This document shows, piece after piece, positions 3-9,273 of a DNA stretch of 64,000 nt (position 1 is the first letter of the stretch; each line of letters begins with the position of its first letter). Origin of the DNA: Iphione sp. A-MEVVRFRX5. Lineage: Eukaryota. The DNA lies in the NCBI GenBank assembly GCA_976226885.1, contig OZ320322.1:49228001-49292000 (forward strand), in the 5' to 3' direction. The translations under genes were made by a program, and so were the position numbers. The notes under the pieces are model-generated. The model ran no database searches and was not told the origin of the DNA. It was given only the letters and a program-made list of their open reading frames with translations.

Positions 3-3000
3 GAAGATGAGACCGGCGTGGATAGCAGGCGTGGTAATGGTCAAGAGGACGATGACGACGACGATGATGATGATGATAATGGTGACGATGACAACAGCAT
101 CGACATGGACAATGACGATGGCAACGAGGGTGACGTGGCATATGAGGATCCTGACAGACAAATGTTAAAACTAATAACTAAGGTATCAGAAAGATTCATG
201 CATTACATAAGAGCCCTACCTGTGTTGGGATTCAACTCAGGAAAGTATGACATGAACGTGATGAAGGGTGCGCTGCTCAGACGTCTGAAAAAGGAAGAGG
301 ACGAAGACGAGAGAGAATTATTCGTCATTAAGCGAGCAAATACATATGTGACGGTCGACAATGGAGAACTGAAGTTCCTCGACATTTCACAGTACTTGAC
401 ACCGGGTGTATCGTATGCAAAATTCTTAAAGGCATACGGTGTGGAAGTTCAGAAAGGTGTCTTTTGCTACGAATACCTAGACGGGCCAGAGAGGTTGTCA
501 GAGACGCAACTACCCCCTCACGAGGCATTCTATTCGTCGTTGAAGGGGACAAATATATCGAAAGAAGAATATGAAGACTTGCAGGCGACTTGGATTCGGG
601 AAGGCATGCAATCATTGCGCGACCTGTTGATCCACTACAATAAGCTAGACGTTGGTCCGTTCGTAGAGGGAGTGACACGTCTGCAAGAATTCTACTTCGA
701 TCGAGGAATGGACGTGTTTAAAGTTGCAGTCTCAGCACCGGGTGTGGCTAGGAGACTTCTGTTCCAGTCCGCTCTAAGCAGGGGAGTGAGATTTCCAACC
801 TTCGGACCCAATGAAGAAGACATTTATCAGACATTCAAGAAGAATATAGTAGGCGGTCCGGCCATCGTATTCACAAGAGCACACGAAAAGAACGTAACGT
901 ACATCAGAGACTCGACCAATAAATGTCAATCAATTATTGGTCTCGACGCAAACTCGCTGTATCTTTGTTGCATTGGCAAAGAACATGCAACAGGCACTTA
1001 CGTGAGAAGGAGAGCGACCACGGGATTCAGACGAGAGAAAGCCCCACTCTCTATGACAAGCGTGATATGGATGGAATGGGAGGCGAGGGCCAGACAAGTC
1101 AGCATCTCACATGCCCAAAACAGATACGAAGGTGAAGTGTGGGTGGGTCCATACAGAGTAGACGGAATTGCAACTGCGGCAAAGACTGTGTTTGAGTTCA
1201 ATGGTTGCTATTACCACGGGCATGAATGCTTGAAGGGAAAGACAAAGGAAACTGAGAGAAAGAGGCGTGAAAAACGAACGGAAGTCAGAAAGAAATACAT
1301 AGAGCGTCTAGGTTACTTAGTGGTGACAATGGAAGAGTGCCGCTTCGAAAACATGTTACAAGAAAACGAGGAACTCAAGGAGTATGCCGAACGTTTCATG
1401 CCCTCATTCAGCGCAGCCCACAGAGACAAAGTAACAGAGCAGGATATCATGTCGGCCGTATGTGATGGATCTCTGTTTGGGGCAGTGGAAGTAGACATAC
1501 AAGTGCCCGAGACATGGCCGATGGGAAGGGAACGCAACATGAGTCCTGCCTCTTACTTTGGAGAGATGTGCCCCCTGTTCGGGAATACCATGGTAAACTT
1601 TGACGACATAGGAGAGCACATGAAACGTCATGTGAGGGAACAACGACTGTCCCAGAGGCCGAGACGGTTATTGGTTGCCACCATGAAAGCTAAGAAGACT
1701 CTGGTCATGACACCATTGCTAAAGTGGTATGTCGAGCATGGATTAGTAGTCACGAAAGTACATCAGTCAATCGAGTTTGTACCTCGTGAGTGTTTCAAGT
1801 CATTCGTCGACGATGTTACAGATGCAAGGAGGCGAGGCGACTGCGATGTAGACATGACAATCATAGCCGACACAATGAAACTGATCGGAAATTCTGCCTA
1901 TGGTGGTATCATCATGCAGAAAGAAAAGCAGCATGCCGTAAAGTATTATTCGACCCCGAACCAAGCAGTATTAGCAGTGAACTCGCCTCGCTTTAGACAG
2001 ATGGTGGAACTGAAAGGTCTCTATGAGGTGGAGATGGCGAAGACGCGGATAACCCTGGACATGCCCGTATACGTGGGATTTTCGATCCTGCAATATGCAA
2101 AGTTGGTCATGCTGTCATTTTATTACGACTGCATTGACAGGTTAATGGATCGTTCTAGCTTCGAGTACGTGACGATGGACACGGACAGCGCTTATATCGC
2201 CTTGGCTAGCCCTTTAATCACTGGGGCGATGACAGAAGAAGGACGACGGATATACGAGAGAGACACGATGGGTAATTGTGATGATAATAAGCATCCAAAG
2301 TGGTTCATGAGAGACTGCTGTCCGTCCCACCGCAGGTTCGACCGACGTGTACCAGGAATCATGAAGGAAGAGGCAAAGGGAGAAAAGATCATCGCGTTGA
2401 CCAGCAAGACATATGTATTGGTGAACAGGGAGACAGATCCACCCACAATAAAGATGAGCTGCAAAGGCATATCAAAGGCAAACGTACTGGACCCCATACA
2501 GACATATGAGAGTGTGCTGCAGTCACGTCGAAGCAAAACAGGTAGGAATATTGGTTTTAGACCATGGTTAGGAACAGTATGCACGTATGAGCTGACACGA
2601 GAAGGTTTCACTTATTTTTACGCCAAGCGGAGAGTGCACGAAGATGGCGTACACACATCACCTCTGGATCTGACCCTATGTCCGTGGGGAGACAGTGTGG
2701 GTGACTATTGCATCATCAGTCGACCATGGCATGTGTTGAACCCGCTGTACGAATGTTACTTAGAAGATGGTTTCCTGTCGGCAGAGCACGTGTTCCTATA
2801 TCGTATGGCAGAATTCCATGCAGCACACGACATTGCACGGGCGATTAAGATGAGTGCCAATAGGAAGGAATTCTTAGTACACGCCAACAAAGTGAAGAAG
2901 AGTAAAGAATGGAGAGACGGTGGTGGACAGTTTAGAGCAATGAAAGAAGTGACCAGATTAAAAGTGAGGGCTCTAGGAGAAGTCGTCTCGTCGGCCCTGA

Positions 3001-3155
3001 ACCACACGAAACACATCGTGTACGCGAACAAGGATAAATACTGGGGAGCCGGTATGGACGAGTCGATGGTGGTGATATCGAGCCCTGAAGAGTTCAGAGG
3101 GAGGAACAGAATGGGAGAGATTTGGGAGGACGTCAGACGCGAGCTGAACCAATGA
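3..3155 (+). CDS. polB: Protein-primed family B DNA polymerase (5' part outside window) with Vsr/PD-(D/E)xK-like insertion and C-terminal NADAR-like domain
   Basis: Frame open from position 3. ExoII LGFNSGKYD, ExoIII YNKLDV, pol motifs GLDANSLY, KLIGNSAYG, MDTDS. Insertion YRVDG..VFEFNGCYYHGH. After the usual Polinton end (KRRVHEDGVHTSPL) the frame continues ~155 aa with SAEH, DKYWGAG, GRNRMGEIW motifs. Confidence 0.96.
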   Translation, partial: EDETGVDSRRGNGQEDDDDDDDDDDNGDDDNSIDMDNDDGNEGDVAYEDPDRQMLKLITKVSERFMHYIRALPVLGFNSGKYDMNVMKGALLRRLKKEEDEDERELFVIKRANTYVTVDNGELKFLDISQYLTPGVSYAKFLKAYGVEVQKGVFCYEYLDGPERLSETQLPPHEAFYSSLKGTNISKEEYEDLQATWIREGMQSLRDLLIHYNKLDVGPFVEGVTRLQEFYFDRGMDVFKVAVSAPGVARRLLFQSALSRGVRFPTFGPNEEDIYQTFKKNIVGGPAIVFTRAHEKNVTYIRDSTNKCQSIIGLDANSLYLCCIGKEHATGTYVRRRATTGFRREKAPLSMTSVIWMEWEARARQVSISHAQNRYEGEVWVGPYRVDGIATAAKTVFEFNGCYYHGHECLKGKTKETERKRREKRTEVRKKYIERLGYLVVTMEECRFENMLQENEELKEYAERFMPSFSAAHRDKVTEQDIMSAVCDGSLFGAVEVDIQVPETWPMGRERNMSPASYFGEMCPLFGNTMVNFDDIGEHMKRHVREQRLSQRPRRLLVATMKAKKTLVMTPLLKWYVEHGLVVTKVHQSIEFVPRECFKSFVDDVTDARRRGDCDVDMTIIADTMKLIGNSAYGGIIMQKEKQHAVKYYSTPNQAVLAVNSPRFRQMVELKGLYEVEMAKTRITLDMPVYVGFSILQYAKLVMLSFYYDCIDRLMDRSSFEYVTMDTDSAYIALASPLITGAMTEEGRRIYERDTMGNCDDNKHPKWFMRDCCPSHRRFDRRVPGIMKEEAKGEKIIALTSKTYVLVNRETDPPTIKMSCKGISKANVLDPIQTYESVLQSRRSKTGRNIGFRPWLGTVCTYELTREGFTYFYAKRRVHEDGVHTSPLDLTLCPWGDSVGDYCIISRPWHVLNPLYECYLEDGFLSAEHVFLYRMAEFHAAHDIARAIKMSANRKEFLVHANKVKKSKEWRDGGGQFRAMKEVTRLKVRALGEVVSSALNHTKHIVYANKDKYWGAGMDESMVVISSPEEFRGRNRMGEIWEDVRRELNQ

Positions 3156-3306: not shown

Positions 3307-3942
3307 ATGGAAGTAGAAGTCCCCGACTATACGTTTGCCACCCCGTCCACGATAATGGTGAGCGGGGCCACCTCCTCGGGCAAGACGAGCTTCGTCATAC
3401 AACTGATCCAGAACAGGCAAGCAATGCTACAGTCACCAGTACCAGAAAGGGTAATATACTGCTATGGAGTATGGCAGAGTGCCTTCGATTCATTGATGGA
3501 CCAAGTAGAATTTCGTGAAGGACCCAACATCGATGATGTAAAACACCCCGGAGGCACACTACTGATAATAGATGATCTGATGGACGAGGTCGTTCAAAAC
3601 GAGAAGATCAGGAACCTCTTCACACGTGGCTCACACCATGATCGGATCACGGTAGTCTACCTCAATCAGAATGCGTTCTGCCAAGGCAAGTGTGCCAGGT
3701 CCATCTCATTGAATTCGCAGTACATGGTTTTGTTTAGAAACCCACGAGACGTTCACCAAATCGGACGGTTGAGTAGTCAACTAGGTATGCCAGAGGTAAA
3801 GGCTGCATACGTAGATGCAACAAGGGAACCATACGGTTATTTGGTGATTGACTTACACCCACGCAACAATACAGAAGTGAAGTTGACCAGCCACGTGCTT
3901 CCCGGAGAGCAAGACCGCCCACTCGTGTGGTATAAAAAGTAG
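3307..3942 (+). CDS. A32/FtsK-HerA-type genome packaging ATPase (211 aa)
   Basis: Walker A GATSSGKT, Walker B LLIIDD, GSHH and RSISLNSQY motifs typical of Polinton ATPases; homolog at 62037. Confidence 0.93.
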   Translation: MEVEVPDYTFATPSTIMVSGATSSGKTSFVIQLIQNRQAMLQSPVPERVIYCYGVWQSAFDSLMDQVEFREGPNIDDVKHPGGTLLIIDDLMDEVVQNEKIRNLFTRGSHHDRITVVYLNQNAFCQGKCARSISLNSQYMVLFRNPRDVHQIGRLSSQLGMPEVKAAYVDATREPYGYLVIDLHPRNNTEVKLTSHVLPGEQDRPLVWYKK

Positions 3943-4627: not shown

Positions 4628-5272
4628 ATGAGAAAATTGGTCTGCATACCACACGAACGTTATCTGTCTCTGCTGAACCAATGGGAGGGAAATACAGCAG
4701 ACCCAATGACTTCTGTACCACCACTACCGACGACGGCGGCGGCGGCGGCGGCGCCGCCGACGACTCCGGCGGCGCCGCCACCACCACAATCGAAGACCAA
4801 TGGCAACAACGAGGAGGAGGAGGCGATGATGATGCGAGGAGGAGTAGTAGGAGGAGGAGGAACAACAACAACAACAACAACAACGCGGGAGAAGCGGAAG
4901 CGGAAGCGACAGGGGGCCCCCGGCGCGCGCGCGTCGCGCGTCGTGCAGCCGCCGCTGCTGCAGCTGCTGCAGCACGCCGACGCCGTCACCGCCGCAGCAG
5001 CACCAGCAGCGACAGCGCCGCCGCAGCCACCGCCGTCGCGCACCGTCGTCGCCGTTCCCGTCGCGCACCGCCACCGTCGCAGCCGCGGCCGCGGCGGCGC
5101 CGCCCGCGCCGGTCATCATCGCGTTCCAACAACCACCAAAAACACAGCAGCAGCAGCAGCAGCAGCAGTACCTCCTCCAGGCGTTCCAATGGACAACAAC
5201 AACAACAACAATACCAACAACAAGAAGAATCTGGTACTGCTCGATTGGACCGGGGGATGGACGAGTATCTGA
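4628..5272 (+). CDS. Low-complexity conserved Polinton ORF preceding the integrase (214 aa)
   Basis: Only the N-terminus MRKLVCIP.ERYL and the C-terminal PPPG(V/I)P...LDWT.GWTSI are shared with 63250..63687; stop overlaps the integrase start by 16 nt in both copies. Confidence 0.7.
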   Translation: MRKLVCIPHERYLSLLNQWEGNTADPMTSVPPLPTTAAAAAAPPTTPAAPPPPQSKTNGNNEEEEAMMMRGGVVGGGGTTTTTTTTREKRKRKRQGAPGARASRVVQPPLLQLLQHADAVTAAAAPAATAPPQPPPSRTVVAVPVAHRHRRSRGRGGAARAGHHRVPTTTKNTAAAAAAAVPPPGVPMDNNNNNNTNNKKNLVLLDWTGGWTSI

Positions 5273-6438
5273 GCGGGATCTACTACGACCCTCGTGAGCC
5301 TGTTGCATTTGGTGGCGCTCGTGAACTGTACAGACGTAGCCAAGCGGACGGACGACCATACACCGTCCGCCAGATCAAGGAGTGGTTGCATGCTCAAGAG
5401 GCCTACACGCTCTTTGCCCCTTCGCCCACTGGTCAAGCAGTGAAGCGACCGCGTGTGGTCGTGTCCGACAAATTCGATCAGTTCGATGCAGACACGGCCA
5501 ACATGACTGCGTGGCGCGATTCAAACGGAGGTATGAGTCATTTCTTAGTCGTAATTGATATCTTCACTCGCTATGCCTGGACCAGACCATTGAAGAGTCT
5601 TACCGCCAACAACGTCCTGGTCGCATTCCGCTCGGTGATGGAGAATGAAGAGGACGGGCGCGTCTGTCGTGTGTTGCGAACAGACGGTGGAAGCGAGTTC
5701 AACAACCGCTATTTCGATCACTATCTGAAGAGTATCGGGGTCAAACACGTCGTTACACGGAACGAGGTCAAGGCCAACTATGCAGAGCGCCTCATCAAGA
5801 CGCTCAAGACTCGCCTCCTGCGCGACATGTACCATCGACAGTCGCACGCATGGGTAGACCGTCTCGCTCCTTTCACCGAGGCGTATAACCACCGCCGTCA
5901 TAGCGCGATCGGGATGACCCCTGCACTCGCCGCTTCGAACAAAACGGATAAGGTGGACCTATGGCGAAGACAATACGCTACGGACAAGGACCCAGCTGCT
6001 CGACGTCGTCATCCTCCCCACCGTTTCCCGTATCGCTTACAAATTGGGGACATTGTGCGACTCGCTCGCTTTAGGCGACCTTTCACGAGGGCTTATGACG
6101 AACAGTGGACACACGAGCTCTTCATGGTCATCGGACGCACCAGACAACGACAGGGTATACCCCAGTACACTATTAAGTCGTGGAACAACGAAAAAATAGA
6201 CGGTCGCTTCTATGGCGAAGAGCTGATCAAGGTCCATGTGGATGACCAGACACGCTATAAGATTGAGAAGGTATTGCGCAAGAAGAAGGTGAATGGTGTC
6301 AGTGGGTACGTCGTGCGCTGGCTCGGTTGGCCCGCACAGTACGACTCGTGGATTAGTGCACGACAGTTGCAGCAGATCAATGCTCCTCCACCAGGACGGG
6401 GAAAAGAAGAAGAAGAAGAAGAAGAAGAAGACAGTTAG
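5257..6438 (+). CDS. int: Retroviral-type (rve) DDE integrase with C-terminal chromodomain (393 aa)
   Basis: ATG at 5257 (MDEYL..IYY) is conserved at 63672. DDE in FDADT, RTDGGSEF, AERLIKTLK. Chromodomain YKIEKVLRKK...YVVRWLGWPAQYDSWI. Confidence 0.95.
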   Translation: MDEYLSGIYYDPREPVAFGGARELYRRSQADGRPYTVRQIKEWLHAQEAYTLFAPSPTGQAVKRPRVVVSDKFDQFDADTANMTAWRDSNGGMSHFLVVIDIFTRYAWTRPLKSLTANNVLVAFRSVMENEEDGRVCRVLRTDGGSEFNNRYFDHYLKSIGVKHVVTRNEVKANYAERLIKTLKTRLLRDMYHRQSHAWVDRLAPFTEAYNHRRHSAIGMTPALAASNKTDKVDLWRRQYATDKDPAARRRHPPHRFPYRLQIGDIVRLARFRRPFTRAYDEQWTHELFMVIGRTRQRQGIPQYTIKSWNNEKIDGRFYGEELIKVHVDDQTRYKIEKVLRKKKVNGVSGYVVRWLGWPAQYDSWISARQLQQINAPPPGRGKEEEEEEEEDS

Positions 6439-7349: not shown

Positions 7350-8783
7350 ATGGCACATGTCCTTCAAGGTTCTGAGGATGGATTCGGGGTGGATCTCGGA
7401 CTGTTCCAAGTTCCACCTACACAGACTGGCATCCGCGAAGAATACGTCAAAGAATTTCTCCCCGTTGGTGATGTGGTCAGTGATGGGGTGGTGGAATTCA
7501 ACATTCCTAATGACTCTCTTGATTACATCGTCCTCCACAAGACCCGCATGCGAGTGGACGTACAAATTCTGAAGGACGACAATACTCCAATCGGTTCTGT
7601 GGACAAGGTAGGCTTCATCAACATGGGCGCCTCTACCATATTTCAACGCATGGACCTGTCTCTCCAACAAACAGTGATGAACACGGGAGTCGGTGGAGCA
7701 TATCCATACAAGGTCATGTTTGACACGTTACTTCGAGCTGGTCTATCTGATGAGACTGGTTGGTTGAAGGTGTCTGGTTTCTCCAAAGATGATAGTCTGT
7801 TTATGGACGAGCCTATCCGCAATTCCGGTGTAGCAGCACGTTCAGCGAAGACTATCGATGGATCTATTGCCCGTCTCATGACACGTCTCTTCTCCGGTAT
7901 CAGTGATCAGCAGCGACCTCTACTCAATGGCGTACCCGTCAACCTCAAGTTGTATCCCTCGAGCGATGTGTTCCGGCTCATGTATCCCGAATTTACATCA
8001 GCTGGAGGGGGTGGTGGATCATCATCATCATCAACAACAACAGCTGATGGTGGTGGTGGTGGTGGTGGTGGTAATGGGGGAGGAGGAGGAGAAGGAGGAG
8101 GAGGAGGAGAGAAAAGACCGGTCCGCACGTCCAGGACATATCATTTGCGATTGGTGAGAGCAGTGCTGTTCGTCACGTTTGCTCGTCTTCATGAAGGTCT
8201 CATTTTGCACCACCGCACGCAGTTAGACAAGTCGCCTGCTCTATACCCGTTCATACGAAGTGATTATCGCTCCTTCACTCTCCCATCAAACAGTTACGAG
8301 TTTGTTGTTGAAAACGTGTTTCAGGATCGCGTACCCCTTCGACTCGTGACAGCATTGGTGCGAGCATCTGCTTATGCTGGTCATGCTCAAAGAAACCCGT
8401 TCAACTTTCGTCACTTCTCCGCCAATTATATTGCCTTTGAGGTCGATGGGGAGTCGCGCCCTGGTCGCCCCTTTCAACCGGACTTCAATAGGAGCCATAT
8501 AGCTACGCCATATGCTGCCTTGTTCGACGCCTTACCTGCGTGGGGACATCATCAATTCCCCGATATCACAGAAGCCGACTTCAAGAGTGGTTACACCATA
8601 TTCGTCTTCGATTTAGATAAGTGCCGCGAACGAGACTTGTTGTCACCACTTCGCAGAGGCAATACACGTCTGACTATAAAATTTGCCATTGGACTTCCTG
8701 AGACGTGCGTCGCTGTGGTGTGTGGTTCCTTCCCAGCACTCATGAGTATCGACCTGGCTCGAAATGTCACCGTTACAGCCTAA
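7350..8783 (+). CDS. Major capsid protein, double jelly roll (477 aa)
   Basis: N-terminus LGLFQVPPTQTGI...VEFNIP..DYIVL, LLNGVPVNLKL, RNPFNFRHF, F..GYTIFVFDL, GNTRLTIKF as in Polinton PY/hexon-like MCP. Confidence 0.93.
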   Translation: MAHVLQGSEDGFGVDLGLFQVPPTQTGIREEYVKEFLPVGDVVSDGVVEFNIPNDSLDYIVLHKTRMRVDVQILKDDNTPIGSVDKVGFINMGASTIFQRMDLSLQQTVMNTGVGGAYPYKVMFDTLLRAGLSDETGWLKVSGFSKDDSLFMDEPIRNSGVAARSAKTIDGSIARLMTRLFSGISDQQRPLLNGVPVNLKLYPSSDVFRLMYPEFTSAGGGGGSSSSSTTTADGGGGGGGGNGGGGGEGGGGGEKRPVRTSRTYHLRLVRAVLFVTFARLHEGLILHHRTQLDKSPALYPFIRSDYRSFTLPSNSYEFVVENVFQDRVPLRLVTALVRASAYAGHAQRNPFNFRHFSANYIAFEVDGESRPGRPFQPDFNRSHIATPYAALFDALPAWGHHQFPDITEADFKSGYTIFVFDLDKCRERDLLSPLRRGNTRLTIKFAIGLPETCVAVVCGSFPALMSIDLARNVTVTA

Positions 8784-9273
8784 CAACACCGCTTCTGGTC
8801 GCGCATTGTCAAGCGAGGACATTCGTCGCAACATGTCTGCCTACGTGGATGTCCCCTGGGTCGACTCCTTTGAACGATTGCCTGGTGTTCCGCTTCCTCC
8901 TCGTACAACACCCTATGTGTTTGTCGTCAATACAGACTTCGTTGAGCGACCAGGACTACATTGGGTAGTCATTTTACTACCACCATGCAATAAACAGGGC
9001 GAACCCGTACCTGCAGAGTTCTTTGATTCCCTAGGGAAGTCACCCGAAGATCACCAACCTCGTATACGCGATTTCTTAGTGGCTAATTCTCATAGTTATA
9101 CTTATTCTGTTGTTCGGTTGCAAGGCGATCGTCCTGTATGCGGTCATTACTGTTTGGCCTACCTACGTTCTAGGATGAGTGGTTATACTTTTAGTGAATT
9201 TGTGTTGTCGTTTGGTTTAGATCGGAACGAAAATGACCGTCTTGTTCTCTATTATTATTTGCATAATAAGTGA
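8764..9273 (+). CDS. Adenain/Ulp1-like cysteine maturation protease
   Basis: VVNTD...GLHWV, EFFDSLG, RLQ...VCGHYC (His, Asp, Gln, Cys). Start 8764 overlaps the MCP end by 20 nt; alternative ATG at 8833. Confidence 0.92.
   Translation: MSPLQPNNTASGRALSSEDIRRNMSAYVDVPWVDSFERLPGVPLPPRTTPYVFVVNTDFVERPGLHWVVILLPPCNKQGEPVPAEFFDSLGKSPEDHQPRIRDFLVANSHSYTYSVVRLQGDRPVCGHYCLAYLRSRMSGYTFSEFVLSFGLDRNENDRLVLYYYLHNK

Follow-up and report, generated by a model that had tools for sequence, protein, structure and literature searches.

A Polinton polymerase with a NADAR tail

The protein-primed DNA polymerase (pPolB) of a Polinton from contig OZ320322.1 (Iphione sp.) is fused in frame to a C-terminal domain with the NADAR fold, and the active site of this domain is degenerate. 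In the 64-kb window, by which we mean the whole stretch of DNA analyzed here, the frame at 3-3155 (+) opens with N-terminal zinc fingers and continues without a stop past the C-terminal motif usual for this pPolB group (KRRV..DGVHT.PL; 2625-2666, +, from the frame and the alignment of its relatives). It then crosses a short linker (2667-2705, +), which has an L.PW motif kept in fused relatives, and enters a domain of about 150 residues (2706-3152, +) delimited by Pfam, a structural model, and a residue map. Pfam and genomic matches support the whole frame: the same fusion recurs in at least 150 scored matches in the genome (identity 53-100%), often within open frames some 1,580-1,680 codons long, and in dozens of unrelated public proteins. 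It is also carried by a second Polinton in the window, whose 1,583-codon pPolB frame, located by genomic match, lies at 57205-61956 (+) and whose NADAR domain (61480-61953) is 66% identical and has the same Met and Tyr at the sites discussed below. These genomic matches, together with the selection on the domain, rule out an assembly artifact or a chance read-through.

The first-pass annotation had read the polymerase as running past the usual Polinton end into an extra, NADAR-like domain, and both parts of that reading are borne out, by the uninterrupted frame and by the profile and structural comparisons that it had suggested. The tail matches the Pfam NADAR profile (PF08719) with 47.9 bits (E 2e-12; cut-off 35.1). 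Its AlphaFold2 model (pLDDT 92.9), folded from an alignment that took in 15 free NADAR rows, has the alpha+beta fold of YbiA, and superposes on the Phytophthora nicotianae NADAR 8BAU with TM 0.78 and Z 16.8 (158 residues, rmsd 2.8) and on E. coli YbiA 2B3W with TM 0.66 and Z 14.1, the next chain having Z 2.5. Other searches gave less: PDB searches with the single sequence and with a Polinton-only profile missed NADAR, Atlas searches with the domain returned generic NADAR clusters, and a word-index search with the NADAR domain alone gave no match, though fusions exist among public proteins.

Judged by its sequence, the element is a complete Polinton/Maverick with a polymerase of the marine pPolB2-VSR type. 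It combines pPolB and a retrovirus-type integrase with terminal inverted repeats, is flanked on each side by a 6-bp target duplication, and spans 21.7 kb between 99-bp arms with AGTAGT-type termini, Polintons being about 15-25 kb in size. The right arm lies at 17893-17991; the left arm, which it matches at 97%, is outside the window, 3.7 kb upstream. The polymerase contains a VSR-like endonuclease insertion (1062-1436, +, bounds approximate; alignment profile against 1VSR/1ODG, E about 1e-4). Downstream of it are a packaging ATPase-like gene (3307-3942, +; weak, below-cut-off Pfam matches to A32/FtsK/IVa2) and the integrase with a chromodomain (5254-6438, +, start approximate; Pfam rve and Chromo above cut-off). 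Two further frames without Pfam matches are probably the genes for the major capsid protein (7350-8783, +), judged by size, position, and motifs, and for the maturation protease (8764-9273, +), judged by His/Cys motifs. No DarT1-type transferase adjoins the fusion gene, its neighbor being the packaging ATPase-like gene, and no transferase gene was recognized among the ORFs of the element that were scanned.

A half-retained active site

Alignment to 8BAU places a Glu (2784-2786, +) at the ribose-binding site (E43 of the Phytophthora NADAR, E88 of E. coli C7), and the equivalents of D130 and W133, which make phosphate contacts, are likewise kept (3033-3044, +). The essential phosphate-binding Lys site (K50/K95) is occupied by Met (2805-2807, +), the pyrophosphate-binding R79 site by Asn (2886-2888, +), and the catalytic acid site (E125 of 8BAU, D171 of the DarT1 antitoxin, E167 of SCO5665) by Tyr (3021-3023, +). 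The Glu, Met, Tyr, and Asp thus stand where they were first described, and the two positions behind the early caveat, the Lys and the last residue of the LVE motif, are replaced in all 42 genomic copies examined. The proposal that the Glu and Asp 3033 form the catalytic pair fails: Asp 3033 corresponds to D130, a water-mediated phosphate contact, and it is Tyr 3021 that aligns with the catalytic acid.

The catalytic residue varies among NADAR subfamilies, being Glu, Asp (DarG1), or His (phage NADARs), and Arg at the phosphate-binding Lys site is tolerated in vitro. Here, the Lys site is Met in 22 of 22 copies and the catalytic site Tyr or Phe in the same 22, with Ile throughout at the DarG1-type Asp position two residues earlier. 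A further 20 copies all have Met/Leu and Tyr/Phe at these sites (Phe in 12), so that neither essential residue is present in any of the 42. The ribose-binding Glu is present in this copy and in 37 of the 42; one genomic family has lost it, as have most external relatives (kept in only 30% of 53 external rows). Half of the pocket (the E43, W89, D130, and W133 sites) is nearly invariant in the main families of the genome. In published NADARs, substituting the catalytic Glu/Asp (PMC11543638, PMC12945103) or the phosphate-binding Lys (PMC11543638) abolished activity, and K50 and R79 contact the phosphates of ADP-ribose (PMC11543638).

Selection and descent of the fused domain

The domain is under purifying selection, with a dN/dS of about 0.1 (0.09-0.12, vs 0.045-0.08 for the polymerase parts, between families whose synonymous sites are near saturation). 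Its net charge ranges from -9 to +4 (27 genomic rows), and a basic DNA clamp is ruled out since the domain has no net positive charge.

Among 150 of the 988 matches of a profile search, the full triad occurs in 3 of 29 external fused domains vs 77 of 121 unfused ones, and a count under a looser rule gave 3 of 53 vs 93 of 131; these counts are phylogenetically non-independent, and as the profile was seeded with degenerate copies, intact fusions may be under-ranked. The external fused relatives that keep the full triad include P0007 and P0010; no locus turned up in IMG/VR for P0007, and a metagenome scan for P0010 gave one unrelated 27% match. All sites are kept in the ybiA-like gene of the host, while the LINE-type NADARs keep the Lys in 14 of 14 and the Glu in 11 of 14. 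A quick domain tree, rooted at its midpoint and containing long branches, puts every fused domain in it (15 genomic, 27 external) to one side of a single branch (SH-aLRT 99); the first of them to split off are the intact P0010 and P0007. The LINE and host NADARs of the genome fall outside this branch, which excludes them as sources of a recent capture.

The survey of Polinton polymerase C-termini proposed at the outset found the fusion in 23 of the 120 relatives listed; a further 19 have a remnant that retains only the C-terminal motifs, 3 have another tail, and 75 have none, stopping at most 60 residues after the C-terminal pPolB motif. The relatives range from intact (P0007 and P0010, basal) through degenerate forms and a trimmed remnant of about 130 residues to tail-less polymerases. 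The tail is not a general feature of the Polintons here: none of 17 loci of other polymerase groups matched, two of these being broken before their end.

Function of the tail and its relation to known systems

We favor, with some reserve, the reading that the tail is a non-cutting module brought to the site of replication, where its predicted task is not the erasing of ADP-ribose but the binding of a ligand or partner. The absence of both the catalytic acid and the phosphate-binding Lys makes the tail likely to be non-cutting, as does Phe, which has no reactive group, at the catalytic site of 12 copies; the near-invariance of half the pocket in the main genomic families favors a retained binding role. 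This binding role is uncertain: the loss of the K50 and R79 residues should also weaken ADP-ribose binding, the domain is not net basic, and in the external rows it is mainly fold-forming Gly/Asn/Trp positions that persist. A nucleotide-like ligand would be our first guess. The history that we infer is a single capture of an active YbiA-type hydrolase by the ancestor of one marine pPolB2 lineage, probably serving to clear viral DNA of ADP-ribose marks set by the host before the polymerase reached them. Catalysis would then have been lost in most descendants, with the domain trimmed to about 130 residues in some and dropped in many.

The original proposal, an active polymerase-tethered eraser of ADP-ribosylated guanine or other DNA bases, is not supported for this element, since both essential residues are replaced in all 42 copies. 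Two residues before the catalytic site, at the alternative position, there is neither an acid nor His, and the NCBIfam N-glycosidase score (41) is below the cut-off of 73.7, which the intact relatives pass. The fold, the retained E43, W89, D130, and W133 sites, and the strong selection would all suit such an enzyme. So would a group of clustered, intronless helicase-PARP genes in the host, potential writers of such marks; the presence of DUF4326, also predicted to process ADP-ribose, at the corresponding place in one related polymerase; and the reported use of NADARs by phages against DarT1 (PMC11257639). Even so, we regard it as very unlikely here; for the ancestral fusion and the triad-keeping P0007 and P0010, eraser activity is plausible. 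A search of the host genome for Pierisin/Scabin-like families gave no match, and its control matched nowhere either.

Given how variable NADAR catalytic residues are, catalysis by an unrecognized rewiring is possible. An enzyme acting through the kept Glu-His pair (Glu in 22 of 22 copies, His in 21 of 22, with Asp, Lys96, and Arg143 invariant) on another substrate, such as damaged nucleotides or DNA-protein links, would have a parallel in the NADARs that work on riboflavin-pathway intermediates (PMC11125620). The alternation of Tyr and Phe at the catalytic site, the loss of the Glu in one genomic family and most external relatives, and the 19 relatives with C-terminal motifs only make this improbable. 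A ligand-free, dead domain that merely stabilizes or caps the polymerase C-terminus would account for the shortness of the linker, the persistence of trimmed remnants in large families, and the best-kept positions of the 53 external rows, namely the linker L.PW and the fold residues G, N, and G. We hold this, too, to be unlikely: the 75 tail-less relatives among the 120 listed indicate that the tail is unnecessary for the polymerase fold, the Glu, Trp, and Asp that face the pocket hardly vary in the main families, and the two-domain model (pTM 0.64, with confidence lowest in the linker, despite pLDDT 93) hints weakly that the two parts do not pack in a fixed way.

On the meaning of the capture we can be only tentative: it may have been a counter-defense against host ADP-ribosylation of viral DNA, with P0007 and P0010 still active and the present domain a non-cutting reader or decoy. 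If true, it would suggest that marine invertebrates defend themselves against DNA viruses by an ADP-ribosylation directed at DNA. More generally, the fusion suggests that, in invertebrates, ADP-ribose chemistry operates, or formerly operated, where viral DNA is being replicated, and the natural intact and degenerate domains bear both on that idea and on non-catalytic roles for NADAR folds. It also gives Polinton polymerases a domain not previously described in them, and within one lineage this domain passes from intact enzyme through remnant to loss.

The tail shares its fold and the E43, W89, D130, and W133 sites with the YbiA-subfamily hydrolases (8BAU, 2B3W, and S. coelicolor SCO5665), but differs from them in its fusion to a viral DNA polymerase and in the replaced catalytic Glu, K50, K75, and R79 sites. 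The polymerase is of the same type, with the same VSR insertion, as those of the marine pPolB2 Polintons (Jeong et al., 2023; PMC10748475), whose text and text supplement do not mention NADAR; its closest named relatives are mollusc proteins that have no NADAR tail. In agreement with the first-pass annotation, which knew of no described pPolB-NADAR fusion, the literature we searched contained none. An extra domain on a protein-primed polymerase does have precedent in the SF1 helicase, a different domain, found C-terminal to pPolB in Tlr1-like and Oxyrrhis PLVs (PMC11161782, PMC12721341), the former source mentioning neither NADAR nor YbiA. The DarT1 antitoxin (DarG1) and an orphan phage NADAR belong to the same superfamily and exemplify a counter-defense logic like that proposed for the ancestral fusion, but the tail has neither the Asp nor the His that they use for catalysis. 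NADARs likewise occur inside replication-related proteins of retroelements, such as the Ectocarpus Gypsy Pol and the oyster Tx1 LINE ORF1 (PMC12477816), and of RNA viruses, in their replicase polyproteins (PMC9503650); many LINE-type ORF1-NADARs are present in this genome as well. In most of these the catalytic residues are kept, and they fall outside the branch of the polymerase-fused domains. NADAR fusions were already known in RNA-virus replicases and retroelements; the partner here is the DNA-dependent DNA polymerase of an animal virus-like element.

A NADAR domain at the end of a Polinton polymerase

The pPolB frame at 3-3155 (+) runs for 1,050 codons without a stop, past the usual end motif of its polymerase group and into about 150 extra residues (the tail); extended upstream of the window, the whole frame comprises 1,658 codons, with zinc fingers at its N-terminus. 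The tail matches the Pfam NADAR model with 47.9 bits (cut-off 35.1). Its AlphaFold2 model (pLDDT 92.9), built from an alignment of 15 Polinton and 15 free NADARs from the genome studied (30 rows), superimposes on the Phytophthora NADAR 8BAU with 158 residues aligned at rmsd 2.8 (TM 0.78, Z 16.8) and on E. coli YbiA (TM 0.66, Z 14.1), the next-ranked chain falling to Z 2.5. The open frame, the Pfam match above cut-off and the fold matches thus uphold the proposal of the first-pass annotation that a NADAR domain is fused to the polymerase. In a two-domain model (pLDDT 92.9, pTM 0.64) the linker is weaker, which weakly suggests that the tail is tethered and not packed in a fixed position.

The Polinton/Maverick that carries the fusion is complete: it spans 21.7 kb, is bounded by terminal repeats of 99 bp and a target duplication of 6 bp, and has genes for an integrase with a chromodomain and for an ATPase-like protein; two further genes, neither with a Pfam match, we take to be the probable capsid and protease. 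Its cargo ORFs lie at 9880-10755 (-), 11318-12088 (+) and 12231-15083 (+), and Pfam gave no informative match for them. Two are probable membrane proteins whose N-termini are rich in Cys, and the other is a long frame rich in Ser/Thr/Pro; all three have a counterpart in a second element at 57205-61956, which bears the same fusion and whose probable capsid gene (L023 1641-2237) is broken after ~155 matching codons. Among the best 120 of 488 polymerase relatives listed, the nearest named ones are mollusc proteins, from which a mollusc-like host may be surmised. A VSR-like insertion inside the polymerase places it in the marine pPolB2 group of Jeong et al. (PMC10748475).

The polymerase-NADAR architecture is real and widespread, and apparently undescribed so far, as had been suspected: no such fusion was found in the literature searched, which took in neither De Souza and Aravind 2012 nor papers under subscription, nor the annotations of Repbase. 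It is absent from the available portions of PMC11543638, PMC11125620, PMC12945103, PMC12477816, PMC11161782, PMC9503650, PMC12721341 and bioRxiv 10.64898/2026.10.13.758929 and 10.64898/2026.07.01.735732, and from the accessible text and text supplement of PMC10748475, whose alignment figures could show the tail unlabelled; none is apparent in what is available of PMC11257639 and PMC8502044.

Erosion of the active site among fused domains

With the register set by profile alignment to 8BAU (chain numbering that of its paper plus two residues) and by alignment A2, the tail retains E43, W89, D130 and W133, while K50 is replaced by Met, K75 by Leu, R79 by Asn and the catalytic E125 by Tyr; two residues ahead of the E125 site it has Ile, where DarT1 antitoxins carry Asp. 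The Asp at codon 3033, earlier read as catalytic, aligns with D130 and is not the catalytic acid. Published mutagenesis describes loss of efficient hydrolysis in the E. coli C7 NADAR upon change of D171 or K95, a minor in vitro effect of E88A (PMC11543638), and abolition of SCO5665 activity even by Glu-to-Asp or Glu-to-Gln (PMC12945103).

The replacements at the K50 and E125 sites are fixed among the copies examined: Met and Tyr/Phe, respectively, in 22/22 of a first set, and Met/Leu and Tyr/Phe in all 20 further copies (Phe in 12). The host's own ybiA-like NADAR gene, a single exon (L045 1360-2346), retains every active-site residue; LINE-borne domains keep the Lys in 14/14 and the Glu in 11/14. 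The NCBIfam N-glycosidase cut-off (73.7 bits) is passed by the host and LINE domains and by two fused relatives, P0007 and P0010; the element's tail scores 41.

Searching 1.84 billion representatives with a profile yielded 988 hits; among the best 150 listed, pPolB lies immediately upstream of the NADAR in 29. The Glu-Lys-Glu triad occurs in only 3 of these, as against 77 of the 121 unfused; with His allowed, the figures are 3/53 fused rows of a hand-picked set versus 93/131 free domains. P0007 and P0010 are intact under both counts; the status of P0061 and P0028 varies with the rule applied or the alignment. A quick tree was built for 170 domains, leaving aside two fused rows that were truncated and 8 unfused ones that were short. 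In it a single branch (SH-aLRT 99) sets apart every fused domain, 27 external and 15 genomic, together with 5 short fragments; under the tree's midpoint root, and with long branches, P0010 and P0007 branch first among the fused domains. Among the best 120 of 488 polymerases, 23 tails are NADARs, 19 trimmed, 2 acidic and 1 DUF4326, with 75 lacking any; the trimmed tails (~130 aa) still match free NADARs over their last 34 columns (HH probability 96.8). Tail states cluster on the polymerase tree and most tail-less rows nest within tail-bearing lineages, which fits gain followed by loss, although deep support is weak.

What the tail may do

The tail is clearly under constraint. Among 231 pairs from 22 copies, pooled and not independent, its dN/dS is 0.115 (20 pairs, pS 0.5-0.7) or ~0.09 (200 near-saturated pairs), compared with 0.045-0.082 for parts of the polymerase; in 11 close pairs tail and neighbouring polymerase end are alike (0.32 vs 0.29). 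What selection now keeps is uncertain. In the main genomic families the Glu, Trp and Asp that face the pocket hardly vary, which favours ligand binding, and we consider the tail to be probably a non-cutting binding module; a purely structural role, to which the constraint might also be put down, appears unlikely given that pocket. A rewired chemistry would be somewhat less likely still. Least probable is the working eraser of ADP-ribosyl-guanine originally envisaged, which the retained E43 would suit but present evidence does not bear out, two essential residues being replaced.

For a non-cutting binding module, we would argue that the ligand is probably neither ordinary ADP-ribose nor bare DNA, as the phosphate-binding basic residues are gone, the tail has no net positive charge and the site is eroded elsewhere. 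An active hydrolase may have been captured once, long ago, most simply for clearing ADP-ribosylated bases that block replication, and catalysis may later have been lost in most branches. Circumstantial backing for an ADP-ribose theme comes from P0206, a related polymerase with a C-terminal DUF4326 in place of NADAR (a single sequence, maybe a read-through into a neighbouring gene), DUF4326 being predicted in PMC9503650 to process ADP-ribose phosphates. Equally circumstantial is a set of intronless host genes of ~2,000 codons (L155, L156 and L157, lying in the C4 cluster and on C15) that join cold-shock-like and ZNFX1 domains to an SF1 helicase and a pair of PARP domains, and whose products are candidate nucleic-acid-sensing ADP-ribosyltransferases.

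NADARs across mobile elements of the genome

At least 150 tail matches were scored out of 1,582 candidates (identity 53-100%, many frames full-length), and a second query recovered additional families of the fused domain. Polintons of two other polymerase groups have normal polymerase ends, with a NADAR match at 0/17 fetched loci, 2 of them broken before the end. In one Polinton family (L135, L141, L145, L146 and L152, with many more copies) the polymerase-NADAR gene is split at ~5 common positions, one within the catalytic motif, by short GT...AG segments resembling spliceosomal introns (boundaries read in L141), and the E43-type Glu is also lost. Beyond Polintons, P0088, a BEL/Pao-type retrotransposon polyprotein, has a C-terminal NADAR. 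LINE-like ORF1 proteins with a terminal NADAR are very abundant in the genome: from 4,416 candidates, at least 150 were scored and the sequences of 30 loci were read. In L046-L074 these domains are mostly intact and are followed by a probable SGNH esterase-like ORF. This placement of NADAR at the end of ORF1 is the same as that reported for oyster Tx1 LINEs (PMC12477816).
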